A stretch of 64,000 bases of DNA from Candidatus Egerieousia sp. (GTDB taxonomy: Bacteria > Bacteroidota > Bacteroidia > Bacteroidales > UBA932): positions 32,184 to 96,183 of the forward strand of contig DAONEN010000001.1 of NCBI GenBank assembly GCA_035403105.1. The letters run 5' to 3'. Shown here piece by piece: positions 2,076 through 63,193 of this stretch (position 1 is its first letter; every line of letters begins with the position of its first letter). Both the position numbers and the translations under genes were made by a program. The notes under the pieces are model-generated. The model saw only the letters and a program-made list of their open reading frames with translations, was not told where the DNA came from and did not search any database.

Positions 2076-2152
2076 TGTTTAAAAATTTTGTCCTTATTGG
2101 TGTCGCGTAAATGTTTTTTTGTAGATTCGCAATTGTTAGCCTCGTATTAGAC

Positions 2153-11768: not shown

Positions 11769-12992
11769 ATGAAAAAATTATTTGCACTACTGACAATTGC
11801 ATTGCTTTGCGCAACAACAACTTACAGCATTGCACAAGACAAAGGTGCTCAGAAGAAAGACTCAGGCTATGTTTTTACCACTGATTTGGCCATTCCAATC
11901 AGCGGTATTAGAAATCAGGGAAGTTCAGGCACTTGCTGGGCTTTTTCTACAACCTCATTCTTGGAAAGCGAGGCAATAAAGAAGGGAACTGCCGATACAA
12001 GCATTGCTCTATCAACGTGGTATACTGTATACAAAAACTATCAGGAAAAATTTGTAAAGTATGTTCGTCTGGACGGAACTCTTAATTTTGCAGAGGGAGG
12101 CGCATCAATGGATGTTGTTCACTCCTATCAAGATTATGGCGTTGTTCTGGAGAAGGATATGCCTTGCCTGAGAGGTGGTGAGAAGAGAATCAATTTCTCA
12201 GAAATGTTTTCTGTTCTTGACGGTTACACAAAAGGTTTTGTTGCAAACACAAAGCACCAGATTTCCGCTCAAGGTAAATGGATGGCTCCTTTCAACGCAA
12301 TACTTGATTCTTACCTTGGCACTTGCCCTGAAAAAGTTACTTACAAAGGTATAGAATATGCGCCTAAAGATTTTGTAACCAAAGGGTTAAAGCTTAATAT
12401 GGATGATTATGTATCAATTAGTTCTTACACTCATCATCCTTTCTATTCACAATTTGCAGTTGAGGTTCCGGACAATTGGCGCTGGGATTTGAGTTACAAT
12501 GTTCCTCTGAATGAGATGATGGAAATCATTGACTATGCACTTGCAAACGGTTACACAATTGCTTGGGGTTCAGATGTTAGCGAGAACGGTTTCACCCGCG
12601 AAGGCATTGCCGTTGTTCCAGATGTTGCAGCTAATGAAAAGGCTGCAGGTTCAGACCAAGAACATTGGGTTGGAAAAGATCCTAATCAGAAGAAGGCCGA
12701 TATTTATAATCTGAACAAACCGGGAAAGGAGATGACTATTACTCAGGAAATGAGGCAGGAAGGTTATGATAATAAGACAACTACAGATGACCACGGTCTT
12801 CAGATTTATGGTATTGCACATGACCAGAATGGTACAAAATATTATATGGTAAAGAACTCTTGGGGCAAGACAGGAAAGTATCAGGGCATCTGGTATGCAT
12901 CTGTTCCGTTTGTACAATTTAAGACAATGGACTTTGTTGTTAACAAGAACGGCATTCCAAAAGAGCTACGCAAGAAGCTAGGTATCAAGTAA
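11769..12992 (+). CDS. Secreted or lipoprotein C1-family cysteine peptidase (aminopeptidase C / bleomycin hydrolase-like)
   Basis: Signal peptide; catalytic Cys in QGSSGTCWAFS; His in DDHGLQIYGIAHD; Asn/Trp in VKNSWG. Confidence 0.8.
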   Translation: MKKLFALLTIALLCATTTYSIAQDKGAQKKDSGYVFTTDLAIPISGIRNQGSSGTCWAFSTTSFLESEAIKKGTADTSIALSTWYTVYKNYQEKFVKYVRLDGTLNFAEGGASMDVVHSYQDYGVVLEKDMPCLRGGEKRINFSEMFSVLDGYTKGFVANTKHQISAQGKWMAPFNAILDSYLGTCPEKVTYKGIEYAPKDFVTKGLKLNMDDYVSISSYTHHPFYSQFAVEVPDNWRWDLSYNVPLNEMMEIIDYALANGYTIAWGSDVSENGFTREGIAVVPDVAANEKAAGSDQEHWVGKDPNQKKADIYNLNKPGKEMTITQEMRQEGYDNKTTTDDHGLQIYGIAHDQNGTKYYMVKNSWGKTGKYQGIWYASVPFVQFKTMDFVVNKNGIPKELRKKLGIK

Positions 12993-13063: not shown

Positions 13064-14224
13064 ATGAAAAAGATTTTTCTTGTTGCAGCAGCTGCGCTAT
13101 GTGCAGGATTGTTTACTGTTACAGACTCTTATGCGCAGTATAAGTATGAATTTACAACAGTAAATAAAAATCCGGCAACTGCTGTAAAAGACCAGGCCAA
13201 TACTGGCACCTGCTGGTGCTTTGCAACCGTCTCTTTCCTTGAGAGCGAGGCAATTAAGAAGGGCACCGCTGATACGACCCTGGATCTGTCTGAGATGTAT
13301 ATTGTAAGGTGCAACTACATCAGGAGGCTTGAGGATGATTATTACAGGAGAGGAAAAGGAAATACCGGTCCCGGCGGAGTAGGGCACCAGGCTCTTTGGG
13401 TTATGGACCATTATGGACTTATGCCGGAAAGCGCTTATCACGGAATCAATTACGGCATGAATCATCATGACCATTCAAAACTTCAGTTCTCATTGGATTC
13501 TCTTATGGATGTTGCAACTAAAGAGAAAAAGGGTATGCCTTATGACCAGGTTAATGCCATTCTTGATAAGTATCTTGGTGCAGTTCCGGAGAGTTTTGAG
13601 TATAAGGGAAAGACTTATACAGCCCAGACTTTCAGAGATATGCTTGGGCTTAAAGGTTCTGATTATGTAGAAATTACAAGTTTCTCACATCATCCGTTCT
13701 ACGCGCTGTCTCCTCTTGAAATACCGGATAACTTTGATCATTATCTGTATTACAATGTTCCTCTTGACGATATGGTTGAAATAATGGATTACGCCATAAA
13801 AAAGGGTTACACAGTATCATGGGATGCGGATATGAGCGAGACTTATTTTGCTCACCGCAATCACATAGCTGTTTTTGCACCTGGTGAAGACATTAGGGCA
13901 GCAAAAGAGATAAAGGCAAAGTATGTTGAGCAGCCTATAGACCAGGATATTAGAGAGAAAATGTTTATGGATTATACAACATCTGATGACCATTTGATGC
14001 ATATTACCGGAATTGCAAAAGACAAAGAGGGTGTTCAGTATTTTATTGTAAAAAACTCATGGGGAAAGGTTCCGGGTTATAATGAGGACGGATATGATGA
14101 TGCCTCTGTGAATTACGTTAAAGCAAAGACAATATCTATATTGGTGAACAAAAATGCTGTTCCTAAAAAATTGGCAAACAAAGCCTTGTTTGAAACGCTG
14201 AGCAATCAGTTAAATGTCAAATAG
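13064..14224 (+). CDS. Second C1-family cysteine peptidase (paralog of the preceding gene)
   Basis: Signal peptide; NTGTCWCFATVSFLESEAIKKGTADT is almost identical to the neighbour's motif; DDHLMHITGIA and VKNSWG are also present. Confidence 0.8.
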   Translation: MKKIFLVAAAALCAGLFTVTDSYAQYKYEFTTVNKNPATAVKDQANTGTCWCFATVSFLESEAIKKGTADTTLDLSEMYIVRCNYIRRLEDDYYRRGKGNTGPGGVGHQALWVMDHYGLMPESAYHGINYGMNHHDHSKLQFSLDSLMDVATKEKKGMPYDQVNAILDKYLGAVPESFEYKGKTYTAQTFRDMLGLKGSDYVEITSFSHHPFYALSPLEIPDNFDHYLYYNVPLDDMVEIMDYAIKKGYTVSWDADMSETYFAHRNHIAVFAPGEDIRAAKEIKAKYVEQPIDQDIREKMFMDYTTSDDHLMHITGIAKDKEGVQYFIVKNSWGKVPGYNEDGYDDASVNYVKAKTISILVNKNAVPKKLANKALFETLSNQLNVK

Positions 14225-15055: not shown

Positions 15056-15128
15056 GACTTGCTAGCTCAGCTGGTAGAGCACGACACTCTTAATGTTGGG
15101 GTCCAGGGTTCGATCCCCTGGCAGGTCA
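15056..15128 (+). tRNA. tRNA-Lys (anticodon CTT)
   Basis: Reads GACTTGCTAGCTCAGCTGGTAGAGCACGACACTCTTAATGTTG...GGGTTCGATCCCCTGGCAGGTCA. The anticodon loop is CTCTTAA. Confidence 0.9.
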
Positions 15129-15130
15129 CA

Positions 15131-15167
15131 AAAAAAAAGTCCGGTTTTTTACCGGACTTTTTTTTTA
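15131..15167. terminator. Bidirectional terminator (tRNA-Lys and the convergent kinase operon)
   Basis: Reads A8-GTCCGGT-TTTTT-ACCGGAC-T9: a perfect hairpin flanked by an A-run and a T-run. Confidence 0.85.
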
Positions 15168-15181
15168 TTTGTGAACATCTG

Positions 15182-16825
15182 TTACTTCAATAAAAAACTG
15201 AATGTGCTTCCATGCTTTGGTTCAGAATCAATTTGAAGCTCGCTGCCAAGATGTTTTAGAATACTCTTGCACAATGTCAGACCAAGTCCAAGCCCCTGCT
15301 TAAATGTATCTACTTTTTCAAATGGAGAGAATATTCTCTCTTTGTCCTCTTTGCTTATTCCAATGCCGGTGTCTTTAACATAAAAAAGGATACTATGGTC
15401 TTTATTAGGAGTATAGCCAATTGTAATACCGCCCTTTTCCGTAAATTTAAGCCCGTTTGAAATAAGGATAAACATAACTTGTTTTAGCAAGGCCTCATCC
15501 GTTGCTATGACGTGCTCTTCTGCAGGAAAAGAAGTATTTATATAGAGTCTTTTTTGCAAAATATCTTTGATTGTAAAAGACCGTTCCGCTGCGTATTCTT
15601 TTAAATCCTCAATAAAACTGTTTAGCTTAATCTCCTGCTTTGAGACTTTAACCAATCCGGCTGAAAAAGATGAAATGCAGAGAATGTTGTCTATAAGAGT
15701 TTTTAAAAGTTCATTATTCTGCTTTATTACAGGCATGAATTCTTCTCTTTGCTTTTGATTTTCACTGTTTACGTACAAGTCTGTGAATCCGATTATTGAA
15801 TTAAGAGGAGTGCGGATTTCATGGCTGATGGAGTTTAAAAAATCATCTGCATCTTTCTCTGCCTGAATAGCTTTTTTATTTAATTCCGATAATACAAATT
15901 CTTTCTCTTTTAGGTCTGTGATATCCATATTCAAGTCTATGAAATACGGATGATTTTTCTCCTTAAAAGCAGCGTCGTAATCGCTCTTGAAAATATTTAC
16001 CAGCGTCCATTTCTTTTTTCCGTTAGGCAATGTAATCATTACAGTGGTTACAAGCGGCGGAATTTTAGAACCAGGTCTTGGGTCTTTTGCAACGCTGGAG
16101 GTGTAATTTCTGATCTCTGTAAATGCTTCACCTTCAGTATGTACAAACCTACTGTTTGAAGTGGCGTTGCTGTTTTCGCCAAGGTTTTTAAACCAAGAAC
16201 CCGTCGCAAACATTATTTTTCCATCCAAGCTATATGACGCTACACCAACGTTTGAATTTGCAGATGCGGTCCTAAGCCTTTTCTCAATCTCTTCCTGCTC
16301 ATCTTCATTGCTCTCTATGTCGGTAATGTTTGCGGCAACAACAATGTAAGAGTATTTTTTTTCTGTAGTTCTTCTTATGATATATTTGAAAATATGCTCA
16401 GAATTTTCTGCGTTTGAATCGTCCCCGTCTAAAAAATAGGCATATCTGTTTAAAAACGTATCTATTTGATTACTAATGCTTTCTCCTGGCTTAAGATTTT
16501 TAATCACATCTGCAGTTGTGCCGTCAAACGGATTCTCAAAAAGATTTACGCACAACATTCCGCCAAGGGTTATGTTATTATCTTTCTCTTCCCCCTTTAT
16601 AATTATTTTTTCCCTGATTCCGTTTGAATTGTATAGGGCAAAACTCAACCCGGAATCTTTGCTGATATTTTCTATTCTATGGTGGTATTCAGTGATTTTA
16701 GCTTTAAGTTTTTCATTTGTAAGGCCAGCTGTTGATTTAAGAATAATTATCACAAGCAACACAATGACCAGCAGTAGTGTTACTCCCGACAGTGCATAAA
16801 TTGATGATATGGTACAAACGTTCAT
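15182..16825 (-). CDS. Sensor histidine kinase (kinase 4 of the array), catalytically intact
   Basis: N-terminal TM, PAS-like modules (SWFKNLGEN) and the H-box NSISHEIRTPLNSIIGF (His codon at 15821-15823). N box NGLKFT, G1 DTGIGI and G2 GLGLGLTL are present. Confidence 0.85.
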   Translation of the reverse strand: MNVCTISSIYALSGVTLLLVIVLLVIIILKSTAGLTNEKLKAKITEYHHRIENISKDSGLSFALYNSNGIREKIIIKGEEKDNNITLGGMLCVNLFENPFDGTTADVIKNLKPGESISNQIDTFLNRYAYFLDGDDSNAENSEHIFKYIIRRTTEKKYSYIVVAANITDIESNEDEQEEIEKRLRTASANSNVGVASYSLDGKIMFATGSWFKNLGENSNATSNSRFVHTEGEAFTEIRNYTSSVAKDPRPGSKIPPLVTTVMITLPNGKKKWTLVNIFKSDYDAAFKEKNHPYFIDLNMDITDLKEKEFVLSELNKKAIQAEKDADDFLNSISHEIRTPLNSIIGFTDLYVNSENQKQREEFMPVIKQNNELLKTLIDNILCISSFSAGLVKVSKQEIKLNSFIEDLKEYAAERSFTIKDILQKRLYINTSFPAEEHVIATDEALLKQVMFILISNGLKFTEKGGITIGYTPNKDHSILFYVKDTGIGISKEDKERIFSPFEKVDTFKQGLGLGLTLCKSILKHLGSELQIDSEPKHGSTFSFLLK

Positions 16826-18471
16826 TGTGATTGTTCTTGATTTTTACATTCGGCCCGTTTTGCAGGTATCCTGCACCACACGGTATTTATATCTTTTCCA
16901 AATTGTTTCTCAATGCTAAACTCTAGCCTGCCCCCAAGTATTGAAGCAAGATGATGCGCAATATATATTTCCAAACTTGTTTTTGCAGCTTTTTTGACAA
17001 GCGTCTTATAATTATTTGAAATCATCTCCGCTTTGCTCGGCGGTGTGCCGCTGTCTGTAATCGCAATGAATAATTCAATTTGCTCTCCTCTCTCTCTCTC
17101 CTCAGGTTTCTCTCTGACAGTGAACACAATAGAGCCATCATGGGTCCTTTTGGCGGAACTGATAGCAAGGTCTCTCACTATCTCTTTCACCAATCTTATA
17201 TCAATGGATAATTTGCTCTGAACGGTCGGGTGGTACTCAACAAAGACATTCTCTCTTAACATGGCTCTGAATTCTTCAACAACTTCCGCCACTATTACAC
17301 CAGGATCAACGTCGCTGAATTTTTGTACGTATGCATCAGACTCAATTCTTGAAATATTAATTACCTCAGATATTGTAAGCAAAAGTTCTGCATTGCTTCT
17401 GGATAATTCTTTCATCAAATGCTTCTTTTCTTCCTCTTTTGAGGCGCAGAATATCTTTGCAGTATCTAAAAGAATATCATCAAGAGGCTGCTGAATCTCT
17501 GTGCTCATGTTTACAATAGATTTGTTCTTAAGGTTTTCCGCAGATCTTGTCTTGTGCAGGGATTCCAATAATTTTATCTCTCTGTTGACTTGTTCATCAA
17601 TATTGAATAAGACAATTTCGGTCATCATCTTCCCTTCATCCGGAGAGTATTCCGTTAGAATTCCGTAAAATCTTATGTAGTGTGTTACTCCGCCAAAAAT
17701 TATTCTCAAATTTGCAGTAACATCAATTTTGTCTTTATTCTCTTTAGTGTTATTGATATTATACCCGTAATACTTTGCATATTCCTTTTCATTGAACTGA
17801 ATATTCCTAATTCTGTTCATAAAGTTTGTTACTTTGACAAATTCTTCTGAAGGAGCATTTTTAAAACTTTCTCTGAATGTGACTCCCGGTTTTACGTAAA
17901 GCAGGTCATACCACGCATTTGTAACGTTATATGAGTTGTTGAATGCATTAACGGTTGCAACTGCAATATTTGCCTTATCCATTGCAAGCTGAAACATATT
18001 ATACATTGCGCTCCTTGCGCTGCTGGTGGCTATATCCTCGCTCTTATCAATGACCGTCCCAATATATCCTTTGATTTTAAAAGATGTTATTTTTCTTATT
18101 CTTACTAGAAGATCGGAATACTTTGAGCTTTTTGTATGATATTGTATATCAAGTACTCCATATTTCTTAAGATGATTGAAATCTTCCTTTGGAATAACAG
18201 ATGAAGACTCAAAAAGATTAAAACCCTTGTATTCGCAGTTTTCGATATTTTTAAAAATACTTTCAAATTCAGAATTTACATCCTCTATATAACCTCTCTC
18301 TGTCATATAAAAAAACGCAACAGGAAGGCTGCTATTCAGCGTTTGAAATTCATCACTGACAGTTGAGAAATCTTTGGCAAGAGAAACCCTTTCCGCTCTT
18401 ATTTTTTTTCTCTTAAGATACAGATAGACAATGCCAATGATGAGAAGTATGTCAATTAAGGCAATAATCAT
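16822..18471 (-). CDS. Histidine-kinase-like protein with degenerate H-box and ATPase boxes (kinase 3, predicted pseudokinase)
   Basis: N-terminal TM and PAS-like modules. The H-box position reads IVNMSTEIQQPLDDIL, with Thr (codon 17500-17502) in place of His. The N box is lost (SSAKRT), G1 is DSGTP, and there is no G2 GxGLG. Confidence 0.75.
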   Translation of the reverse strand: MIIALIDILLIIGIVYLYLKRKKIRAERVSLAKDFSTVSDEFQTLNSSLPVAFFYMTERGYIEDVNSEFESIFKNIENCEYKGFNLFESSSVIPKEDFNHLKKYGVLDIQYHTKSSKYSDLLVRIRKITSFKIKGYIGTVIDKSEDIATSSARSAMYNMFQLAMDKANIAVATVNAFNNSYNVTNAWYDLLYVKPGVTFRESFKNAPSEEFVKVTNFMNRIRNIQFNEKEYAKYYGYNINNTKENKDKIDVTANLRIIFGGVTHYIRFYGILTEYSPDEGKMMTEIVLFNIDEQVNREIKLLESLHKTRSAENLKNKSIVNMSTEIQQPLDDILLDTAKIFCASKEEEKKHLMKELSRSNAELLLTISEVINISRIESDAYVQKFSDVDPGVIVAEVVEEFRAMLRENVFVEYHPTVQSKLSIDIRLVKEIVRDLAISSAKRTHDGSIVFTVREKPEERERGEQIELFIAITDSGTPPSKAEMISNNYKTLVKKAAKTSLEIYIAHHLASILGGRLEFSIEKQFGKDINTVWCRIPAKRAECKNQEQSQ

Positions 18472-21266
18472 TTTAAATCTTTAAGAACAAACCAAAACGT
18501 TGAACCATCACCTTCATTTGATATGACGCCAAGGTCTCCGTTTAAGTGTCTTACAATACTCTTACACAAAGATAGACCTAAGCCGGTTCCCATGGAATAA
18601 CTATCAAATTTTTCAAACTTGTTAAAAATTCTCTCTTGGTCTCTGTCCGATATTCCGCAGCCGGTATCCTTCACGTAGAAATATATCCCATTCTCTTGAG
18701 GCTGATAGCCAAATGTGATTGTTCCGTTCTTAGTAAATTTAACTGCATTTGAAAGCAGGTTAACCATTACTTGTCTAAAATTCCATTCATCTGTAACTAT
18801 TACATTATCTTCTAGGGGAATTTCTGCAAAGATCTCTATGTTTTTGGCCGTCAGCCGCTTTTCATTATGAAGCATGTGAACGGTTGCAGTCTTAAGTTCT
18901 CTGAATAAACCGTTTAACTTGACCTCGTCTTTTGAAAATTTGTAAAGTCCGGAATCGATTTTTGCTATAGAAAGAATATTATTGAACAGTTCAATAAGCA
19001 CATTATTATTTCTCTTAATAATGCTCGTTATATTTTCAACCTCTTTTGGATTTTGTTCTGTAAGTAACATCTTTGAGAAACCAACAATTGAAGTTAACGG
19101 TGTCCTAATTTCATGGCTGATGGAGTTTATAAATCTATCACTATCCTGGTAAGCAATGTGTACCTCTTTAACCTTTCTCTCCTCTATGATTTCTTTAACT
19201 TTATCCGCTGTAATGTTAAAGTTAATATCTACAACTACAGGGCCTGAGGCTTCTGACGTCTCTCTTAAAAATATGCTCTCCCTTATCCATTTATTTCTGC
19301 CGTTTGGCTGATTCTGAAGCTGAATGTCATTTGTAAACGATCCGGCTTTTCCTTTAATCAAATTCTGTCTAAAATCTGTGATAGCGGCTTTATCACCCTC
19401 TTTTAGATTAATATAGGAGGGCTGAATTAGTCCCGATTTATTGACTTTCTCACCAAGATTGCTGAACCAGAATTCAGTAGCATAACCTTCTCCGGAAATT
19501 ATATTATAGCACGCAATGCCAATATCGGTTGTGCTAATTGCATAATTTATTAATGAATCCAGTTTCTCCTTTTGTTCAACTTCTTGGATCTCTGATGTGA
19601 TATCGGAAATGACCATCATGTATTTATAAGGGGTGATTATCTCACCAATGATAGGGCTAACCATAAAGCTGATCCTCTTTGGGGTGCTTATCTCTCTTGT
19701 GACTTCTCTCTTATTCCTTATATTATTTACATCACTATCTGTAAAAATAGATGTTGTATACAGATTTTCGGGAAGATACTTTTCAATAGCACTTCTGATT
19801 TCTTGTTCTTTTGTCTTTATTATGCTAAATAATTTATTGCCCCTTCCGTCATAGACTGCAAAGTTTAGTTCAGACTCATTGAATAATGAGTTGTATTTTT
19901 CATATATTTTTTTGTCCTGATTAATTATGCGCCTGTTATCCACGTTCTTTTTTAAATGCATGAAATACATATAGATAAGTCGTGAGAATATTAACAGTCC
20001 AATTAGCAGAATGATAAATAATCCTGCATGTATTGCAATCCAGCTTCTTACAGTATTAACATATCTCACTCCGTAGAAATATTTGACGCCGCCCCCTAAC
20101 CCAAATCTATTAAGTGCCATTTTATTAATTATGTAATCGCCGTTTTTAAGGACATAAAAATCTGAAGGCGATCTGTATTTTTTGCCTTGGCTAAAGATGT
20201 TGCTTATTATCTCACATCCTTTTGCAGCTAATATACTTTCAGAAGGATTGTATCCTCCAACAATGTAATTATTAAAATATTGGAAAGAGTTTATTGAGAA
20301 GAGAGGGGACTTTAACTTAGTTGTGAATAAAGAATCAATCTCCTCTCTTGTGTAAGAACTTCCGTCTCCATCATAATTCCAAGCGTATGTGATAAATGCG
20401 GTTTTGGCATCCGAGTTAAGAATTACATTTAATATAGAGTCAGCGTTGTTGGAATTTCTAAAAATGGAGGAATACTTGATTCCAGGATACCCTTTTTTCA
20501 CAGTGCTCTTTAAGAGGGCATTGGCACATAGGCTTTCAATGTATGGGTTATCAATAAATATAATGTGCTTGACTTTTGGTGCAAGCTTACTTATAAGTTT
20601 TAGATTCTCATTAACAGGCGTTTGTGATACTACGCCAAATAATCTGTTTCTATATGATACGTTTTGATAATCAACGCCGGAAGATTTTCTAATGCCGGCT
20701 GGGATGCTCTTTGAGATTCCAAGCGCCACCACGGGGATTCCTTTCCACACACCTGCAAAAACTCCTGATATATTACATGCTATAGTAGCATCGTCTCCTA
20801 CTGTAACAATAATATCGGGACGTTTGCTTCCGTAGTTTGTAAGAATTTGTGAAATGACTTTTGTTGCATAACCGTATCCGGATGAGCAGTCAAAATTTAA
20901 AAAATAAGTATTGACCGTGTACTCCGGACTTCTCTTTTTTAATTGTGAGGCAAGACTATCCGCGGTGTTTTTTGCCCATAGTACATCTGGAGAAAAAGAA
21001 CTGATTATTAATATGTTGCGTGGAATAATGGGCTGCCCGTCTAATTCACGTACGCTAGGTATGCTGTCATCGTCTTTTTCAATAATGTAGACATAATCTC
21101 CTTTGTTATGAGTATTGCCTGCATCTTTTTCATTTTCATGTAATGCATATACACTGTCTTGTGTGCCAAACTGCGCAAATACATTTACATTTGTAAACAT
21201 TAAAAGTATGGCAGCCAGAATAGCGCTGGTGTAAAAATGGCTCTTTATTCTAATTAAATTTTTCAT
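18468..21266 (-). CDS. Sensor histidine kinase with a large periplasmic binding-protein-like domain (kinase 2), catalytically intact
   Basis: Signal peptide, ~390-aa periplasmic domain, TM, PAS-like modules (EFWFSNLGEK) and the H-box NSISHEIRTPLTSIVGF (His codon 19113-19115). NAVKFT, DTGCGI and GTGLGLSL are intact. Confidence 0.85.
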   Translation of the reverse strand: MKNLIRIKSHFYTSAILAAILLMFTNVNVFAQFGTQDSVYALHENEKDAGNTHNKGDYVYIIEKDDDSIPSVRELDGQPIIPRNILIISSFSPDVLWAKNTADSLASQLKKRSPEYTVNTYFLNFDCSSGYGYATKVISQILTNYGSKRPDIIVTVGDDATIACNISGVFAGVWKGIPVVALGISKSIPAGIRKSSGVDYQNVSYRNRLFGVVSQTPVNENLKLISKLAPKVKHIIFIDNPYIESLCANALLKSTVKKGYPGIKYSSIFRNSNNADSILNVILNSDAKTAFITYAWNYDGDGSSYTREEIDSLFTTKLKSPLFSINSFQYFNNYIVGGYNPSESILAAKGCEIISNIFSQGKKYRSPSDFYVLKNGDYIINKMALNRFGLGGGVKYFYGVRYVNTVRSWIAIHAGLFIILLIGLLIFSRLIYMYFMHLKKNVDNRRIINQDKKIYEKYNSLFNESELNFAVYDGRGNKLFSIIKTKEQEIRSAIEKYLPENLYTTSIFTDSDVNNIRNKREVTREISTPKRISFMVSPIIGEIITPYKYMMVISDITSEIQEVEQKEKLDSLINYAISTTDIGIACYNIISGEGYATEFWFSNLGEKVNKSGLIQPSYINLKEGDKAAITDFRQNLIKGKAGSFTNDIQLQNQPNGRNKWIRESIFLRETSEASGPVVVDINFNITADKVKEIIEERKVKEVHIAYQDSDRFINSISHEIRTPLTSIVGFSKMLLTEQNPKEVENITSIIKRNNNVLIELFNNILSIAKIDSGLYKFSKDEVKLNGLFRELKTATVHMLHNEKRLTAKNIEIFAEIPLEDNVIVTDEWNFRQVMVNLLSNAVKFTKNGTITFGYQPQENGIYFYVKDTGCGISDRDQERIFNKFEKFDSYSMGTGLGLSLCKSIVRHLNGDLGVISNEGDGSTFWFVLKDLK

Positions 21267-24200
21267 TTCTTCTCCTCCTTGTCCTCTGATAATACAGTTT
21301 TCAGTTCTTTCTTAAGTTCCGATTCATTTACTGGCTTAGAAATATATCCGTTAAATTGACCATCTCTTACCTGAGCTCTGCTTTTATCTGATGTATAGGC
21401 GGTTACTGCAATGATAGGTGTTTTTGTATCTTTCTTTCTTATAGCGGCGGTAGCTTGGAAACCATCCATCTTTGGCATCTTTATATCCATCAGCACCACG
21501 TCGGGTTTTTTCTCTAAAGTCATTTTAATAACTTCATATCCGTCGTGAGCATGAAGAATTATATAATTCTTTCTCAAAATGAAGTTTAGCAACTGAAAGT
21601 TGTTTTGATTGTCTTCCGCAATAAGAATAACTTTCTGTCCTTTGTTCTTAGAAGTTGTTGCATTCTCCAGCACTCCCTTGATGGCAGATGTGGATTCTGC
21701 TGCATAATGCTTTGGAACAATGCACCATACAATGTTGCCTTTGCCCCTTTCCCCTTGTTTGTATCCGATTTCACCGTGAAGAGATCTGACAATAGAGCGG
21801 GCAATCGGAAGGTCTAATCCCTGTCCTACATAGGACTCATCTGCAAGATGGTCAAATCTGTCAAATAATCTTGCTCTCCTCTCTCCGGATATGCTCTCTC
21901 CGTCATCGTTAGCATACATGTAAACATTGTTTTCTCTCACTTCATAACCAAGCTTGACCGTACCGGCCTTTGAGTGTTCCATAAATGATATGGCGTTGTC
22001 GCATAAAAGTTCAATGATGTTTTGAACTCTTGATTTATCTGACAGAAGAATATTATTACCTTGCTTTGCAAACTCAATGTTGATGTTATTATTTTTGGTT
22101 TTTTCAGCAGCCTCCGCGGCAACTTGCTCAAATACAGCCTCAAGATTAAATTCTGCCATTTGTTTTTGTGCGCTGTTAGACTCAATGTCAGAAACTGAAA
22201 TGATTTGCTGAATCATTTTCAAAAATTTATCACTGTTCTCTTCTATGTATTTCTGCAGTTCTTCTTTATTATCTGACGGTGTTGCTTCAACCAGCAGTTC
22301 TGCAAATCCTACAAGCGCATTTAGAGGTGTTTTAAGTTCATTCCCCATATTGCTGATAAGCGAGTTCCTCAGCTTTGTAGAGTCTACATATTTGTCATAT
22401 GTCTTAGAAAGCTCATCCTCTTTTTGCTTCTGTGAATCTATGTCAGAGATTATGGCGTAACACAATACTTGATTCTCTTCTTTATTGAAACTGCTGACAG
22501 ATATTCTCAGATGAAGCCAATGAGTAGAGTCGTCATTGTTTTTAACTCTGACATCTTTTGAAAATGAAGTTTCAGTTCCTTCTCTAGCCTGGTCGGTAAA
22601 TCTTATTATGGCTGCAAGATCCTCTTTTACAAGATTATTAAAGCTAGTGTCCAGTTGCGTGCCATTCTTTATTTTTAGGTTATAGAACCATGAATCGGTC
22701 CCAATATAGGAGAACTCTTTCTTTGCCAAGTCAAATTTTGCAACACCGTATTTTGACGCGTCCATTGCCAAAAGGAAAGAGGTATTTATCCTATCCTTTT
22801 CTGCACGCTGCATATATTCATCTGTATTGTTGACAATTAGAAGAATTATAGCATCTTTGTCTTCTATGGTTTTAGGTATGAATATTGCCCTTTGATATAT
22901 GTTGCTGTTGTTGACCTTAAAAATGTAATGCTTATCTGCAATCTCTTTGTGTCTTATTTTTTGCAGCGTTGCATCAGATACATAAGGAGAATTGAATATA
23001 GAGAACTCCGCGGATTTGTTATAGTCAGGAACCACAAGGGAGAGTTCCTCCTTTGCCTTGGAATTATACTCAACAAATTTGCCAAGATCTGTGAATACTG
23101 CAATACCTATTGGAGAATTTTTAAACAATGCGCTGTAATCTTTTAACAGCTTATTGTACAGTTCAACATCCTCTGTGACTTTTTTATTTCTCTTGCGGAC
23201 TGCAAAATTTATAAGTAGTGCAAATAGCAACAGAAGGGTCAGCAGCGCGGGGAGAATCTTAACGGCATGCTTTGTAAGAAAGCTTGTACGGTCTTCATAC
23301 ATAATGTTGTACTTCTTGCCTGCCAGCTTAATCCCAATCTTGTCCGCAGCAACTTTGTTAACGGACATTTTTTCCGGAGAAATGTATTTCAACTGTATAG
23401 ATGAAGCGGGCGTGCCGGAAAGAATTTGTTTTAATGAGGCTGCCGTTGCCGCTGCAAGTTTTGGAACACTTATAAAAATTCCGCCAACCATTGGGGTGTT
23501 TGCACCTGCAGGTATCTGCTTTAAAATCACGACAGGTACATTGTTGGAATTGTATAAGGAATTGTAACCGGAAGAATTATCTGTACTAAAAGAGTTAATT
23601 AGAATTGCCGCATTCTTTTTTGCGAAATTGGAAATAGTAGAATTAATAATATCAGCATTAACTTTCTTTATATCGGAAACTATAAAATTAATGTTTCTTG
23701 CACTAAGCTGCGCTTCAAACTTGTTTGTGTTAAGGCAATCTTCAAAAGTCTTTTCTGAAAAATAAATTGCAGTTTTTGTGTTGGGAAACAAGACTTTAAG
23801 AGCAATTATGGTAGCTCTAATATTATCTTTTCCAAAGACTCCTGTTACATTATATCCGGCGGTTTCATCTTTAAGAGAGCATATTAAACTGTCGGGAACC
23901 GTATGAGTTGCAAGGAAATATGTGTAATCCGCCATTGTTTCATCAGAGGGAGCGCAGACTACAATTGGAATATTCCTGAGTTGAATACCAGATTTCTTTA
24001 ACACCATCCATGCCTCTGTTCCAACAATAACTACAGCATCAGGGGCTTTATGAATCCTGGAGAACACATCGGAAATTTCTGAAACGCCTTCCGCCAGAGA
24101 TTGTTTATGTACGATATCTGTGTTTGCTAGGCTGACACTTACGCCGGGTATGATTTTTTTTGCATAAAAGGTAATTTTACTGCAAATCAATTGATTCCAT

Positions 24201-24328
24201 GCGTCATCATAACGGTATGAACTAATGATTTGTATATTCTTCTCCTTACCTGTGCTTTGGGCAAATGCCGGTAAAACTGACATTAGCGCAAGTGCGGCAA
24301 CAAAGATAGAACTGAACAACTTTTTCAT
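21263..24328 (-). CDS. Hybrid kinase-like protein with receiver domain; phospho-acceptor His replaced by Asn (kinase 1)
   Basis: Signal peptide, periplasmic binding-protein-like domain paralogous to kinase 2, TM and PAS-like modules. The H-box position reads LISNMGNELKTPLNALVGF (Asn codon 22340-22342). G1 is DDGES and G2 is GQGLDL. The C-terminal REC is intact (EDN..., LMDIKMPKMDG, AVTAY, SKP). Confidence 0.8.
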   Translation of the reverse strand: MKKLFSSIFVAALALMSVLPAFAQSTGKEKNIQIISSYRYDDAWNQLICSKITFYAKKIIPGVSVSLANTDIVHKQSLAEGVSEISDVFSRIHKAPDAVVIVGTEAWMVLKKSGIQLRNIPIVVCAPSDETMADYTYFLATHTVPDSLICSLKDETAGYNVTGVFGKDNIRATIIALKVLFPNTKTAIYFSEKTFEDCLNTNKFEAQLSARNINFIVSDIKKVNADIINSTISNFAKKNAAILINSFSTDNSSGYNSLYNSNNVPVVILKQIPAGANTPMVGGIFISVPKLAAATAASLKQILSGTPASSIQLKYISPEKMSVNKVAADKIGIKLAGKKYNIMYEDRTSFLTKHAVKILPALLTLLLLFALLINFAVRKRNKKVTEDVELYNKLLKDYSALFKNSPIGIAVFTDLGKFVEYNSKAKEELSLVVPDYNKSAEFSIFNSPYVSDATLQKIRHKEIADKHYIFKVNNSNIYQRAIFIPKTIEDKDAIILLIVNNTDEYMQRAEKDRINTSFLLAMDASKYGVAKFDLAKKEFSYIGTDSWFYNLKIKNGTQLDTSFNNLVKEDLAAIIRFTDQAREGTETSFSKDVRVKNNDDSTHWLHLRISVSSFNKEENQVLCYAIISDIDSQKQKEDELSKTYDKYVDSTKLRNSLISNMGNELKTPLNALVGFAELLVEATPSDNKEELQKYIEENSDKFLKMIQQIISVSDIESNSAQKQMAEFNLEAVFEQVAAEAAEKTKNNNINIEFAKQGNNILLSDKSRVQNIIELLCDNAISFMEHSKAGTVKLGYEVRENNVYMYANDDGESISGERRARLFDRFDHLADESYVGQGLDLPIARSIVRSLHGEIGYKQGERGKGNIVWCIVPKHYAAESTSAIKGVLENATTSKNKGQKVILIAEDNQNNFQLLNFILRKNYIILHAHDGYEVIKMTLEKKPDVVLMDIKMPKMDGFQATAAIRKKDTKTPIIAVTAYTSDKSRAQVRDGQFNGYISKPVNESELKKELKTVLSEDKEEKK

Positions 24329-24351
24329 TATGCGTAATTTATTATCCTCTG

Positions 24352-25332
24352 CTATTTATTCTCCAAAGCATTTTTCAGGTAATTGTTAACGTTTACATCT
24401 GATGTCGGACGTATTACTTTTATACCGGTTATGGATTTTCTTGAATTTACATATTCATTGATGGTCATTTTATCTAATTCTACCTTCATATCGGCAAAAG
24501 ACGCATGGATAAAACCAACTCTTCCATTCTCTACGCAGGCAATTGCCACGTGAGCTATATCAAGTCCTGGAGTAGCTGACATATAACAGATTATATCTCC
24601 GCTGCATATTTTGTCCTCACAATCTGCAATCTTCTCTTTTTGGATATAAGTAATTGGTGTTTTGTTAAGATTATTTTCAATTTCCGTTATGTGACTTAGT
24701 TCCTCTGCTGAGGTTAATTGTTTATATCTCTGATAGTTGCGGCTCATAAAAAAAATAGGATGACTATAAATATCTCCTCCAAGACTCATTGTGATATCTT
24801 TAATGTTGCCAAATTTTTCGCTCTGTCTTATCCACTCGGTTGTATAATGCAAGCGGCTGGAATAACTTCCGATAATCCCATTCCTGTAACGGCTTACTCT
24901 TTCATTTTCAGCAAATTGTTGAAATGTGGCCTTTTTGCCGCTCCTGTGTGCGGTAATAGCCAAATTTAAACAAGTTTCCACAAAAATTATACAATCTGTT
25001 TGGTGCAAGTTGATGGTTAACTGCTCATTAGAGTCTGCCTTGTCAAGTGTTCCGGCAACATAGGGTGTGCCAATAAGCATTTTGGCCGCCATTATCATCA
25101 AATCAGGAACGCTTCTGTCTGAATAGGGTTGCAGTGTTATTAAAATTTTATCTGCAAGATATTTGTCAAGACTAGTTGTCACGATAGAATTCTCAACCAA
25201 AACAGGGGTAATGGAATCCAACTGTGAACGTTGTTCTACGCTGCAAAATTGAGCTCTAATGCAATTAATTGGCGCAATTGATAAAGTTAGCACAAACGCT
25301 ATGCTAATTATACACAGAGCCCTTTTTTTCAT
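24352..25332 (-). CDS. Secreted DUF1460 (AmiA-like, N-acetylmuramoyl-L-alanine amidase-like) domain protein
   Basis: Signal peptide. The motifs LIGTPYVAGTLDK, LTINLHQTDCIIFVETCLNLA and GDIICYMS...LDIAHVAIA...FIHAS are typical of DUF1460 as I remember it. Confidence 0.65.
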   Translation of the reverse strand: MKKRALCIISIAFVLTLSIAPINCIRAQFCSVEQRSQLDSITPVLVENSIVTTSLDKYLADKILITLQPYSDRSVPDLMIMAAKMLIGTPYVAGTLDKADSNEQLTINLHQTDCIIFVETCLNLAITAHRSGKKATFQQFAENERVSRYRNGIIGSYSSRLHYTTEWIRQSEKFGNIKDITMSLGGDIYSHPIFFMSRNYQRYKQLTSAEELSHITEIENNLNKTPITYIQKEKIADCEDKICSGDIICYMSATPGLDIAHVAIACVENGRVGFIHASFADMKVELDKMTINEYVNSRKSITGIKVIRPTSDVNVNNYLKNALENK

Positions 25333-25373
25333 AATAGTCTGATTTTAAATAATTTGACTTTTACCTCAATCCA

Positions 25374-25381
25374 CAAATTTA
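25374..25381 (-). promoter_or_regulatory. -7 box TAAATTTG (DUF1460 and four-kinase operon)
   Basis: The reverse complement of CAAATTTA lies about 42 nt upstream of the DUF1460 ATG. It is the only such box I saw between ilvE and the end of the array. Confidence 0.5.
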
Positions 25382-25394
25382 GCAATCTTTTTAT

Positions 25395-25431
25395 ATAAAA
25401 TAAAAAAGAGAGCTGCCTTTTGGCAGCTCTC
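25395..25431 (-). terminator. Rho-independent terminator of ilvE
   Basis: GAGAGCTGCC-TTTT-GGCAGCTCTC is a perfect 10-bp stem, followed on the minus strand by a T-run. Confidence 0.85.
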
Positions 25432-25445
25432 AATGAACAATAACC

Positions 25446-26474
25446 CTAAAAACTATTTTGTTGAAGAATGACGCACCAATTGTGCTCGTCTTTAATTTCG
25501 CCGTTTTGAATTCCTACGATGTGGTTGTAAAGTTTAATGCATGTTTCAATTCCATCATAGGTATAGCGCTTGCACTCGCTGACATCAATATCCGGTTTAT
25601 CGTCAATTGATTTAACAGGGGTGATAACAACGGCAGTACCACATTCACCAACTTCTTTGAACTCTGCAAGTTCCTCAGAAGGAACTCTGCGTCTCTCCAC
25701 CTTCATTCCGAGGTCTTTGGCAGCAACTTCCAGAGATTTATTGGTGATGGACGGAAGGATACTGTTGGAAAGAGGTGTAATATATGTATTGTCCTTAATA
25801 CCAAAGAAATTTGATGAGGAAAACTCGTCTATGTATTTGTGTTCTATAGGATCCAAGTAAAGAACCGCCTTATAACCTTGCTGTTTTGCAACTTGTCCCG
25901 CATGAATAGATGCTGCATAATTGCCTCCAACTTTGTAGCAACCTGTTCCGTGGCCCGCTGCGCGGTCATACTTTCTTGCTATAACACCATTTACGGCAAC
26001 TAAGTTGCCTTGTCCGGAATAAGAACCAACGGGGGCAACTGCAACGAATAACATTTGTTTTTTTGCCGGAGCAATTCCAAGCTGGGATCCTGAACCAAAA
26101 AGAACCGGTCTTATATATAGGGAGGCACCGCTTCCGTAAGGAGGAAGATACCTCTCATTCTCCTTTACCGCCATTATACATAGGTTTGTAAAATCTTCTG
26201 TTGTAGGTGCGTCCATTCCAACATATGCAGCGGAAGACTGCATTCTTTTTGCATTCTCATCCGGGCGGAAAAGTCTGATTTTGCCATCTTTGCCCCTAAA
26301 AGCTTTTAAACCCTCAAAACACTCAATACCATAATGAAGTGAAGGAGCCAAACCACTTAAAGGGATATTAATATCAGAACTGATAACCGGCTTGCCCCAG
26401 ATGCCGTCTTCATACGCACATGAAATATATTTATCAGTAGGGGTGAACGAGAAACTTAATTTACTCCAATCCAT
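25446..26474 (-). CDS. ilvE: Branched-chain amino acid aminotransferase (class IV)
   Basis: Length and motifs (LHYGIECFEGLKAFR; GTGCYKVGGNYAAS; ECGTAVVITPV) fit the eukaryote-like BCAT subgroup. Confidence 0.85.
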   Translation of the reverse strand: MDWSKLSFSFTPTDKYISCAYEDGIWGKPVISSDINIPLSGLAPSLHYGIECFEGLKAFRGKDGKIRLFRPDENAKRMQSSAAYVGMDAPTTEDFTNLCIMAVKENERYLPPYGSGASLYIRPVLFGSGSQLGIAPAKKQMLFVAVAPVGSYSGQGNLVAVNGVIARKYDRAAGHGTGCYKVGGNYAASIHAGQVAKQQGYKAVLYLDPIEHKYIDEFSSSNFFGIKDNTYITPLSNSILPSITNKSLEVAAKDLGMKVERRRVPSEELAEFKEVGECGTAVVITPVKSIDDKPDIDVSECKRYTYDGIETCIKLYNHIVGIQNGEIKDEHNWCVILQQNSF

Positions 26475-27403: not shown

Positions 27404-29083
27404 ATGCCCTGGAAAAAACTCATGACACTAGTGTGTTGCGTCTTTTTGATGTGCACTTCTTTTTTTGTTTTTGCACAGAGCACTCTTAAAGAGGAAATCA
27501 TCCGTTATGTATCTGATACATCAAATAAACATATAGACAGTTCTCATGATGCAGAGCCGATAATAATTAATCACAAAATCATAGCAAGCGGTGACAGACA
27601 GTTTTATCCTTATGAGTATATTAATAAGGATGGAGCGCCAGATGGTTTTGATGTTGAACTGTTCCGGGCTCTTATGAAGAATCTTCATTTGGACTACGAT
27701 CTTACGCTTGGGGATTGGTCTCAGGTTCACCAACTTATGAAGAATGAAAAAATTGATGTAATTGTCGGAGTAATGTATTCTCCCCAGAGGGCCAAGTATA
27801 TCAAGTTTAGTATCCCCCATAGTATCCTTACGCTCTCTTTTACAGTAAGAAATGGGAGCGGTTTTGAGTCTTCAGATAATTTGAGGGGCAAGAGGATTGT
27901 GGTGCAGAAAATGGACAGGGGATATGACTATTTGCATGAAACGGGTTTTACAGATAAAATAGTGGCAGTGAACACAATAAAAGAGGGTTTTAGAATGCTT
28001 GAATCAGGAGATTGCGATGCCGTTTTATTTGATCATCTCTCTTCACTGACTATGGCAAGAGATTTAAAGTTGGAAGATACCAAGATTATTGCCTCAAATA
28101 TTGCTCCTCAACGCTATTCGATTGGTGTCAACAATAAAGATGAAGACTTGTTATTTCTTCTCAATGAGGGACTTTATGAGATGAAAGTCAGCGGAGAATA
28201 CGATAAAATTTATGATAAGTGGTTTAATGTTACCGACCCTGGCGGGGAGAGGTACAAGCGCACGATATTCATCGTGAAATGTGTTTTGGTCTCACTTTGG
28301 GTTTTGCTGATGTTGGGTGTAATTTTTATTTTGGTATTAAAGTCTAAAGTAAAGAGATCAACAATGGAAATTCTAAAAGAAAGGGATAGGGCGGAAAGGG
28401 CAGATAAATTGAAAAGTGTTTTCTTATCAAATATGAGTCATGAAATTCGTACACCGCTTAATGCAATTGTCGGTTTTGCAAGCCTTTTGTGCGAGGAGGG
28501 GCAAGACATTGAGGATAAAAAAAACTATGCGGAGATTATAAAATGTAACAGCAGGCAATTGCTTCAACTTGCGAGCGATATACTTGATACTGCAAGAATT
28601 GAATCAGGTACTCTAGTCCTTAATAAAAACGATTTTACCATAGAAGATCCGTGTATGGAAGCTTTTATTTCAGTGAAGGTTAACTTTAATAGCAAGGACG
28701 TAATTCTGCAAGAAGACTATCAGTGTGATTGTCTTGTGAATGCAGATTTGCTAAGAATAGAGCAGGTTGTCGCAAACTTTCTTACCAATGCGATAAAGTT
28801 CACTAAAAAGGGCTCAATCACTTTGAGTACAATTCGTTGTCAAGATGTTGATATGGTTGAAGTCTCTGTTACAGATACCGGTATTGGCATTTCTAATGAA
28901 GATGCCAATACCGTATTTGACAGATTTAAGCAAGTTGGCAAAATGGGCAAAGGCACCGGTCTCGGCTTGTCTATAAGCAAGAACATCATAGAATTAAGCG
29001 GAGGGGAGATTGGAGTTGATTCTGAAGAGGGAAAAGGCTCCAAGTTCTGGTTTCGCCTTCCTATAGCGGGAATGTCTCACTAA
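27404..29083 (+). CDS. Sensor histidine kinase with periplasmic SBP_bac_3 (Venus-flytrap) domain
   Basis: Signal peptide, SBP3-like region (DRQFYPYEYINKDGAPDGFDVELF), TM, and the H-box VFLSNMSHEIRTPLNAIVGF. NAIKFT, DTGIGI and GTGLGLSI are intact. There is no PAS and no REC. Confidence 0.85.
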   Translation: MPWKKLMTLVCCVFLMCTSFFVFAQSTLKEEIIRYVSDTSNKHIDSSHDAEPIIINHKIIASGDRQFYPYEYINKDGAPDGFDVELFRALMKNLHLDYDLTLGDWSQVHQLMKNEKIDVIVGVMYSPQRAKYIKFSIPHSILTLSFTVRNGSGFESSDNLRGKRIVVQKMDRGYDYLHETGFTDKIVAVNTIKEGFRMLESGDCDAVLFDHLSSLTMARDLKLEDTKIIASNIAPQRYSIGVNNKDEDLLFLLNEGLYEMKVSGEYDKIYDKWFNVTDPGGERYKRTIFIVKCVLVSLWVLLMLGVIFILVLKSKVKRSTMEILKERDRAERADKLKSVFLSNMSHEIRTPLNAIVGFASLLCEEGQDIEDKKNYAEIIKCNSRQLLQLASDILDTARIESGTLVLNKNDFTIEDPCMEAFISVKVNFNSKDVILQEDYQCDCLVNADLLRIEQVVANFLTNAIKFTKKGSITLSTIRCQDVDMVEVSVTDTGIGISNEDANTVFDRFKQVGKMGKGTGLGLSISKNIIELSGGEIGVDSEEGKGSKFWFRLPIAGMSH

Positions 29084-62509: not shown

Positions 62510-63193
62510 TTAATCCGTCAGCATCAGACCAGTGCGCTTGTACGTTTGAATATTCACGGCCGTATCTTCCTCCAACAGTTTGCGCAGCTTAAGTATGTGA
62601 TTATCAAGGCTACGTGATGTGAAATAATCATCCGCACCCCAAATTTGATTCATAATCGTGTTTCTTTCAACAATGCTCCCTTTGTGTCTGCATAGCACCT
62701 CAAGTACCTCCGCCTCCTTAGGGGTCAACTTCACTTCTCTGCCTGCTGCATTAAGCACTAAGATATTTCTGCTCTTGTCAAATGTGTAATGTCCTAGTTT
62801 GAAGAGATATATGGATTTTTCTCTGTTTGTCCTCCTTAGCAATGATTTGATTTGTCCGTCAAGCTGCTCTTTTGTAAACGGCTTCTTAAGATATGTGTCA
62901 ATACCGGAAGCATAGCCCTTTTTAAAGTCATCGGACTCTGTCAATCCCGATAGTATAATAATTGGGATATCCGGATTTTTCTTCCTTATCATAGCAGCCA
63001 TAGTGTTGCCATCCATTACCGGCATATCTACATCAGTAACAACTACATCCGGGTGTACAGAAGCAAAAGTATCCAACCCTTTTTTCCCATCCGGTGCAAG
63101 CGTTACCTCGTAGCCTCCAATTACTTTTTCAAGCTCTGATTTTACAATAAACCTGAGCCCGGAATCATCTTCCACAAACAGAACTTTTATCAT
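62510..63193 (-). CDS. OmpR/PhoB-family response regulator
   Basis: REC (FVEDD, VVTDVDMPVMDG, ILSGL, LKKPF) plus a winged-helix output (LTPKEAEVLEVLCRHKGSIVERNTIMNQIWG). Confidence 0.9.
   Translation of the reverse strand: MIKVLFVEDDSGLRFIVKSELEKVIGGYEVTLAPDGKKGLDTFASVHPDVVVTDVDMPVMDGNTMAAMIRKKNPDIPIIILSGLTESDDFKKGYASGIDTYLKKPFTKEQLDGQIKSLLRRTNREKSIYLFKLGHYTFDKSRNILVLNAAGREVKLTPKEAEVLEVLCRHKGSIVERNTIMNQIWGADDYFTSRSLDNHILKLRKLLEEDTAVNIQTYKRTGLMLTD

Follow-up and report, generated by a model that had tools for sequence, protein, structure and literature searches.

Known kinase partnerships and the Egerieousia operon

Histidine kinases are homodimers in textbooks and, to our knowledge, few cases of partnership between two kinases, or between a kinase and a pseudokinase, have been described: RetS/GacS, FasB/FasC, DivL/CckA and RocA/CovS. 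Here a five-gene operon, lying between positions 15182 and 25332, was examined in a window of 64,000 nucleotides (nt) of DNA from the gut Bacteroidales bacterium Candidatus Egerieousia sp.; in it, a gene for an AmiA-like amidase is followed in transcription order by four sensor genes, K1 to K4. We lean towards reading the operon as a periplasmic amidase plus two ancient A-B sensor pairs (K1/K2 and K3/K4) that form a multikinase module, in which the A member would be non-phosphorylatable on histidine and the B member a complete kinase. The five genes are better described as carrying two such pairs than as carrying four equivalent paralogs.

Kinase-kinase regulation of the RetS/GacS type, already invoked in the initial annotation of this locus, appears to remain the best analogy for the operon. 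In that system a kinase-like membrane sensor with receiver(s), but no HPt domain and no DNA-binding output, controls a true kinase, and RetS acts on GacS by three mechanisms: direct contact, phosphoryl siphoning and phosphatase action (PMC5992135). The architecture of K1, as known here from sequence, is compatible with that of RetS (periplasmic sensor, inactive-looking transmitter, receiver and no HPt), and the structural match of highest identity for the K3 core is the RetS kinase region (PDB 6dk7, 22-23%); no sequence-level orthology to RetS was found. However, RetS retains its His, RetS and GacS are non-adjacent and their sensor domains are not paralogous, and GacS has its own receiver (REC) and HPt domains and a known regulator, GacA, whereas here adjacent paralogs with matched sensors are arranged as a duplicated unit with no regulator in the locus.

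In the fasBCAX operon of group A Streptococcus, FasB and FasC show hetero- but not self-interaction in two-hybrid assays, and FasC is a proposed pseudokinase whose kinase domain is dispensable and which keeps a functional acceptor His, H246 (PMC12675982). Two adjacent, co-operonic kinase-like proteins, one of them a proposed pseudokinase, are thus common to both loci, yet the Fas operon includes the regulator FasA and a small-RNA output, FasC keeps H246, whereas in K1 and K3 it is the His that is gone, and FasB/FasC is a single Gram-positive pair with different sensor domains. RcsC/RcsD of Enterobacteria likewise comprise an adjacent hybrid kinase and membrane pseudo-kinase without H-box His, and K3 weakly matches the RcsD pseudo-kinase region; however, RcsD works through a C-terminal HPt, and the receiver is carried by the active kinase RcsC rather than, as here, by the His-less K1. 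Membership in the RcsD-type phosphotransferases was ruled out, since K1-K4 have no HPt.

DivL of Caulobacter is a pseudokinase with a Tyr in its H-box and with PAS domains, and regulates the active hybrid kinase CckA. It is similar in being an H-box-substituted PAS pseudokinase, and its structure (4q20) is among the best structural matches of K3, but the divL and cckA genes are non-adjacent, the sensors are unrelated and CckA has the known ChpT-CtrA output. In Myxococcus xanthus, the four two-component proteins RedCDEF are encoded in one operon, and one kinase-like protein that is unable to autophosphorylate acts in phosphoryl removal (PMC2755868). Both the number of two-component proteins per operon and the inclusion of a non-autophosphorylating kinase-like protein recall the present locus; unlike here, two of the Red proteins are response regulators in their own right, the His of RedE can still be phosphorylated and there are no paralog pairs. 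Membership in the Bacteroides hybrid two-component systems, which unite periplasmic sensor, kinase, receiver and AraC-type DNA-binding domain in a single chain, was also ruled out: Pfam found no DNA-binding domain (HTH_AraC or other) in K1-K4, and thus no AraC-type helix-turn-helix (HTH).

None of the compared systems combines adjacent paralogous partners, matched sensors, an A-B-A-B array, a receiver on the His-less partner and a regulator-less operon. In the literature on PF04392-linked kinases, on His-less Bacteroides kinases and on Egerieousia, no description of such a system was found, and a natural kinase/pseudokinase pairing of this form seems undescribed.

Domains and catalytic motifs of K1-K4

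K2 consists of a signal peptide, a periplasmic domain resembling periplasmic binding proteins (PBP-like), a transmembrane (TM) helix, putative PAS-PAS, HisKA and HATPase_c, and in K4 a TM helix and putative PAS-PAS precede HisKA and HATPase_c. Both carry the H-box SHEIRTPL (His718, 19113-19115, in K2; His335, 15821-15823, in K4); in each, the ATP-binding boxes (N, G1, F and G2) are all present. The H-box His that defines an active HisKA kinase is absent from K1 and K3 and from all their orthologs (seven of seven for K1, with Asn in six and Ser in one; for K3, NMSTEI in 7/7, and Ser in L008, the most distant block). Thus, the description of the four as sensor kinases in the initial annotation holds for the canonical K2 and K4, but not for K1 (His to Asn) and K3 (His to Thr, with the ATP-binding motifs missing as well).

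In K1, Pfam identified ABC_sub_bind, HisKA, HATPase_c and Response_reg. The chain begins with a signal peptide and an ABC_sub_bind-like domain in the periplasm; a TM helix and putative PAS-PAS then lead to DHp, CA and receiver. The ABC_sub_bind match (PF04392; 38.2 bits versus a gathering cutoff of 25.9) places the periplasmic domain in that family, and the domain matches PDB 3lft at 4.5e-6; for K2 the same match reaches 25.7 bits, just below the cutoff, but K2 aligns with K1 over the full length. The H-box of K1 reads GNELKTPL, with Asn663 (codon 22340-22342) at the phospho-acceptor position. In its CA domain the Asn lies one residue out of register, and the G1 (DDGES) and G2 (GQGLDL) boxes are degenerate and vary among orthologs; the E-x-x-T phosphatase motif is retained beside the lost His. 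The receiver is complete (ED, Asp948 at codon 21485-21487, Thr and Lys998; Response_reg, 90.5 bits), nearly invariant among orthologs and, as had been noted initially, the only one in the operon. With a complete receiver and a transmitter lacking His, K1 falls outside the definition of a hybrid histidine kinase, a definition that covers its orthologs at the first A position (A1) of three loci (L013, L097 and L099).

K3 has no Pfam match at all; NCBIfam yielded only weak kinase-core matches, one of them to the pseudo-kinase region of RcsD (NF007907, 6.2e-12). K3 comprises a TM helix, putative PAS1 and PAS2, DHp and a CA-like fold, and no receiver. In its H-box, STEIQQPL, Thr324 (codon 17500-17502) replaces the His; the N-box Asn (to Ser), G1 (DxGxG) and G2 (GxGxGL) are lost, as is the E-x-x-T motif (Thr to Gln), and the DHp surface below the His position is unlike those of K1, K2 and K4. 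An AlphaFold2 model of K3 (predicted local distance difference test (pLDDT) score, 82.3) contains the TM helix and two PAS-like modules (beta-beta-alpha-alpha-alpha-beta-beta-beta), followed by the DHp hairpin and an alpha/beta domain resembling CA. Foldseek matched the full-length model to the PAS-PAS kinases WalK, NifL and LOV-HK, and its core to HK853 in addition to the RetS and DivL structures mentioned above.

Judged by these motifs, neither K1 nor K3 can be phosphorylated on the H-box, and K3 is predicted to lack the usual mode of ATP binding; it has the look of a pure modulator. Alternative phospho-acceptor His residues in the DHp domain were sought and rejected: there is none in K1, and the one in K3 (KKHLM) is unconserved in orthologs. 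No HPt match was found in K1-K4 with Pfam or NCBIfam, and K3 ends after its CA-like domain and K1 after its REC. In public annotation the family carries generic labels such as 'response regulator', 'HAMP domain-containing histidine kinase' and 'hypothetical protein'.

The four proteins are paralogs, in agreement with the initial annotation: BLAST aligned K1 with K2 over the full length (5e-39), the closest two are K2 and K4 (3e-78; 35% identity over 507 aa), and the best match of K3 is K1 (9e-17). The W-F/Y-x-N/L-L motif on which their kinship had been proposed is real, with T, W and L invariant across 24 family members; in K3 (NAWYDLL) it corresponds in the model to helix 185-191, the first after strand 2 of PAS2. 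A PAS-like module in this region is suggested by the folds modelled for K3; Pfam PAS matches are below threshold in K1 (PAS_3, 17 bits versus 25.6, E = 0.007; PAS_8, 15.8 bits versus 21.8) and absent from K2-K4 even at E ≤ 10.

Close relatives are few (eight clusters for K3, down to 59% identity, and seven for K1, down to 52%), and every one of them sits in an AmiA-K1-K2-K3-K4 block. The nearest genome, a metagenome-assembled genome (MAG) of Candidatus Egerieousia sp., encodes a K3 of 87% identity; it was the only locus matched in the genome-contig scan. As the His substitutions recur in independent assemblies, an assembly error at the His codon was ruled out. Between the window and L001, dN/dS is 0.12 for the AmiA-like gene, 0.14 for K1 and K2, 0.23 for K3 and 0.13 for K4, and thus all five are under purifying selection and encode maintained proteins rather than relics. 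By domain, it is 0.11 for REC (the most constrained of K1) and 0.13 for CA in K1, 0.03 for DHp and 0.06 for CA in K2, and 0.28 for the CA-like domain of K3, well under 1 in every domain tested.

The A/B family across Bacteroidales and its interpretation

An exhaustive HMMER search with a K3 profile revealed a larger family in Bacteroidales, built as PBP-TM-PAS-PAS-DHp(-CA)(-REC); His is missing from many of its members. Loci were surveyed by hidden Markov models built for the sensor, DHp, CA, REC, PBP, AmiA and PhoU modules and run over all open reading frames (ORFs); the census took in 95 loci and the window, plus four more loci, and arrived at 99 related loci (numbered with the prefix L). 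Eighty metagenome loci came from a closer 5-sequence alignment, most of them single-gene members or generic DHp matches. Two types can be told apart by H-box context: (i) type A, with NMxxE as in K1 and K3; (ii) type B, with (S/N/T)I(S/N)HE as in K2 and K4. Every multi-gene locus is ordered A-B or A-B-A-B, and the order also holds strictly in loci with unrelated flanks (L014, L016-L018, L096 and L098).

Catalytic loss is one-sided. Type B always has both His and CA, with no loss in 17 B sequences; in type A the His position is occupied by H, N, S, T, K or D, and CA, REC or both may be missing. His, CA or REC were lost repeatedly on the A side only. The A variants include (i) full hybrid kinases with His (gene 1 of L013, L097 and L099; also L016 and L098); (ii) proteins with His replaced by Asn (K1 of the window, L015) or Ser (L008); (iii) DHp(no His)-REC proteins without CA (the third gene, A3, of L013, with Lys, and of L097, with Asn); (iv) proteins of ~720 aa consisting of PBP-PAS-PAS-DHp only, in which T or D takes the place of His (L014, L017, L018 and L096).

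A simple neighbour-joining tree of the shared sensor-DHp region (200 bootstraps) united all B sequences in 200 replicates, B2 with B4 in 193, and B2, B4, A1 and A3 in 180, 145, 165 and 164, respectively. For each sensor gene of the operon, the tree thus places a positional ortholog in both L013 and L097, which are from distant Bacteroidales MAGs, and the four-gene array predates those lineages. Moreover, within every pair the periplasmic domain is carried by both members or by neither. Pair 2 of L013, in which A3 and B4 have the PBP domain, is sister to pair 2 of L097, in which neither has it (199 and 200 of 200), and pair 2 of the window clade also lacks it in both members; thus the domain was lost jointly at least twice. 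The initial annotation had found no output gene in the operon, and this extends to the family: no response regulator, HPt or DNA-binding (HTH) gene was found in any related locus examined.

The comparison of neighbourhoods across Bacteroidales proposed earlier showed that all related loci with K1 identity of 52% or more keep the five-gene block, as do more distant MAGs. The exact ATGA junctions are less constant. All three overlaps together occur in the window species only, relatives having gaps of 2-45 nt at one junction or more: K1/K2 overlaps in most relatives (12-nt gap in L008), K2/K3 is gapped in L002 (19 nt), L005 (45 nt) and L008 (3 nt), and K3/K4 in L001 (22 nt), L002 (10 nt) and L005 (15 nt). 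All A-B and B-A junctions overlap or are separated by at most 45 nt; the fixed stoichiometry that had been deduced from ATGA coupling is, however, not a conserved property. Gene content, motif loss, selection, the phylogeny and order of A and B types, and matched domain loss are in this way directly established.

In two further cases, family members were found in other settings. One genome, Bacteroides sp. 214 (GCA_010501015.1), holds two separate pairs at unrelated loci (L014 and L096), in each, the gene for a ~720-aa His-less protein with PBP-PAS-PAS-DHp only, annotated 'hypothetical protein', precedes and overlaps that for a ~930-aa complete kinase. Next to one pair is a gene for an extracytoplasmic function (ECF) sigma factor. 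In the human gut metagenome, a sister clade of single-gene members without adjacent A or B partner is common (L019-L052), comprising ~945-aa kinases of the PBP-PAS-PAS type that carry NMSHEIRTPL, as well as shorter, PBP-less forms.

From comparison of the loci we infer physical pairing, a direction of phosphoryl flow, a signal and an output, as follows. Pair 1 (K1/K2) would sense the periplasm via its matched PBP-like domains, and pair 2 (K3/K4) would rely on cytoplasmic PAS domains only. K2 and K4 would be the only autophosphorylating proteins; K1 and K3 would each contact their B partner, by way of the DHp helices, the matched sensor domains or both, and adjust its balance between kinase and phosphatase activity. 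Asp948 of the K1 receiver, the likely phosphoryl acceptor, would be charged in trans from the His of a B protein, as sink or relay, and for A-borne receivers elsewhere (gene 3 of L013 and L097) phosphorylation by B in trans is hard to escape: the A3 proteins of these two loci, having no CA, have no kinase of their own and could be phosphorylated only by another one. Since K1 keeps E-x-x-T, a phosphatase role, as in the second RetS mechanism (PMC5992135), is possible. Output would proceed via a response regulator or HPt encoded elsewhere, or via contacts of the phosphorylated K1 receiver.

Several points weigh against two pseudokinase/kinase pairs. Paralogous histidine kinases are normally insulated from heterodimerisation, and the physical A-B interaction, co-transcription and phosphotransfer assumed here are all deduced by comparison. 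His, CA and REC are retained by A1 in five loci (L013, L097, L099, L016 and L098), so that the ancestral A partner was itself a functional hybrid kinase and pairing does not need a pseudokinase. K1 may have an enzymatic role of its own, given its E-x-x-T motif and constrained CA (dN/dS 0.13). Furthermore, the phylogeny is a simple neighbour-joining one in which support for B4 is moderate (145/200), and related loci share the flanking genes PhoU_div, PALP and Aminotran_4, so that part of the order conservation is inheritance.

A stronger form of the pairing model, to which we give some but clearly less credence, is that the pairs are obligate asymmetric heterodimeric receptors resembling class C G-protein-coupled receptors, each with a non-catalytic A and a catalytic B subunit and matched Venus-flytrap-like domains. 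A would then be free to lose His, CA and REC, and in the window two heterodimers would converge on one membrane-tethered receiver (K1 D948), signalling without a DNA-binding partner in the locus.

That the four genes are instead independent tandem duplicates, acting as homodimers with their own unlinked regulators, with K1 and K3 as stand-alone phosphatases or scaffolds and adjacency as a trace of duplication, seems unlikely to us. Such a history would fit the syntenic flanks, the phosphatase motif next to the lost His of K1, the many single-gene members of the family and the unconserved ATGA overlaps. It does not account for an A-B order that is strict in all multi-gene loci even where the flanks are unrelated, for His/CA losses confined to A (0/17 B sequences), for the joint loss, twice, of the periplasmic domain from pair members, or for DHp-only and DHp-REC A proteins without catalytic activity of their own.

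The nature of the first gene raises the possibility, which we rate similarly low, of a cell-wall turnover circuit, in which the AmiA-like amidase would free stem peptides, the PBP-like domains of K1 and K2 would bind product or substrate and the operon would report peptidoglycan turnover or damage. AmiA splits anhydro-muropeptides into sugar and stem peptide (PMC4600125). The product of the first gene, called DUF1460 in the initial annotation, is indeed a member of the AmiA/DUF1460 NlpC/P60 amidases (PF07313, 136.5 bits versus a cutoff of 27), with that activity predicted. It carries an N-terminal signal peptide and matches PDB 2p1g (4.5e-38) and 4h4j, the AmiA of B. uniformis (8.6e-38); its DC..FVE and H..IA motifs align with the solved AmiA structures, and the catalytic Cys114 (codon 24991-24993) and His261 (24550-24552) are conserved. 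In the window clade, as in L008, L015, L097 and L099, the block starts with this gene, and solved PF04392 proteins bind the aromatic amino acids L-Trp, L-Tyr and L-Phe (PMC10443332). Yet the gene is absent from L013, which has a full A-B-A-B block, and from all pair-only loci; the PBP domains of K1 and K2 are divergent, their ligand being conjecture, and the amidase might just as well be a regulated output, or a mere neighbour.

Finally, that K1 and K3 are functionless (decaying pseudogenes or assembly artefacts) is very improbable: K3, with no Pfam match and with a dN/dS (0.23) above that of each of the other four genes, would suit such decay, but it is contradicted by reading frames intact in all assemblies from many samples, by dN/dS well under 1 in each domain, by the confident PAS-PAS-DHp-CA fold of K3 (pLDDT 82) and by the persistence of His-less A3 orthologs over deep divergence.

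Operon layout and genomic setting

All five ORFs are on the minus strand, with products of 326, 1021, 932, 549 and 547 aa; the AmiA-like gene is 23 nt from K1, and the K1/K2, K2/K3 and K3/K4 junctions are each an ATGA stop/start overlap (Table 1). Gene coordinates, spacing, overlaps and the terminator, which sits between K4 and tRNA-Lys, all agree with the initial annotation.

Table 1. Operon genes, associated signals and family motif copies, with positions in the window.
Feature	Position	Strand	Basis or remark
Candidate promoter box TAAATTTG	25374-25381	-	matches Bacteroidota -7 consensus TAnnTTTG
AmiA-like (DUF1460) NlpC/P60-type amidase gene	24352-25332	-	Pfam PF07313
K1, A-type, pair 1, 1021 aa	21263-24328	-	Pfam and alignment
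Family motif DSWFYNL, K1 copy	22676-22696	-	motif alignment
K2, B-type, pair 1, 932 aa	18468-21266	-	Pfam and alignment
Family motif, K2 copy	19449-19475	-	motif alignment
K3, A-type, pair 2, putative pseudokinase, 549 aa	16822-18471	-	alignment and AlphaFold2 model
Family motif, K3 copy	17899-17919	-	motif alignment
K4, B-type, pair 2, 547 aa	15182-16825	-	Pfam and alignment
Family motif, K4 copy	16175-16201	-	motif alignment
A-tract / GTCCGG...CCGGAC hairpin / T-tract, intrinsic terminator usable both ways	15131-15167	.	read from sequence
tRNA-Lys(CTT)	15056-15129	+	converges on operon, shares terminator 15131-15167

The single promoter box named initially, TAAATTTG, is present, between the start codon of the AmiA-like gene and the strong hairpin (25408-25431) at which the upstream neighbour gene terminates. 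It is the sole intergenic one among six TAnnTTTG matches on the gene strand of 15100-25500; matches inside genes occur at chance frequency (6 observed in all versus 4.0 ± 2.0 in shuffles), so that the motif alone is weak evidence, and a single promoter for the five-gene operon is no more than plausible. Another match to the -7 consensus, TATCTTTG, lies inside K2 (18567-18574, minus strand), ~96 nt upstream of the K3 start, and might serve K3 and K4 as an internal promoter, although matches in this region are no more numerous than chance predicts. Sigma-70 promoter and terminator scans of the region gave counts at shuffle expectation and are uninformative for Bacteroidota; the consensus terminator scan did not list the hairpin of Table 1, which is visible by eye.

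No further REC domain was found within 37 kb of the operon, and the sole other receiver of the window belongs to a conventional regulator beside its own kinase at 62.5-64 kb (62510-63193 and 63190-63975, both on the minus strand), at the end of the window. A 690-aa kinase with canonical H-box is encoded at 2111-4183 (plus strand). In total, seven kinase-family genes versus one stand-alone regulator were counted in the 64 kb.

Upstream, the neighbour is usually a divergent PhoU_div gene. In the window this gene (PF01865; 26723-27373, plus strand) is followed by one for an SBP_bac_3-HisKA-HATPase_c kinase (27404-29083, plus strand), whereas in the distant syntenic loci L013, L015 and L097 it is paired with a PHO4 phosphate transporter; the sensor kinase thus holds the transporter's place in the window clade. 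On the other side, just past tRNA-Lys and a CDP-alcohol phosphatidyltransferase gene, are tandem paralogous Peptidase_C1-like genes (11769-12992 and 13064-14224, plus strand; 407 and 386 aa), which occupy the same position in relatives.

The fixed A-B order, one-sided catalytic loss and matched sensor loss are family-wide in gut Bacteroidales. If the pairing is physical, the family would provide a natural series of variants (with or without His, without CA, without REC, with or without the periplasmic domain) for heteromeric kinase signalling, as well as a route to annotating hundreds of genes labelled 'hypothetical protein' or 'response regulator' in gut metagenomes. The linkage to the amidase, moreover, suggests a testable signal, that of cell-wall turnover.

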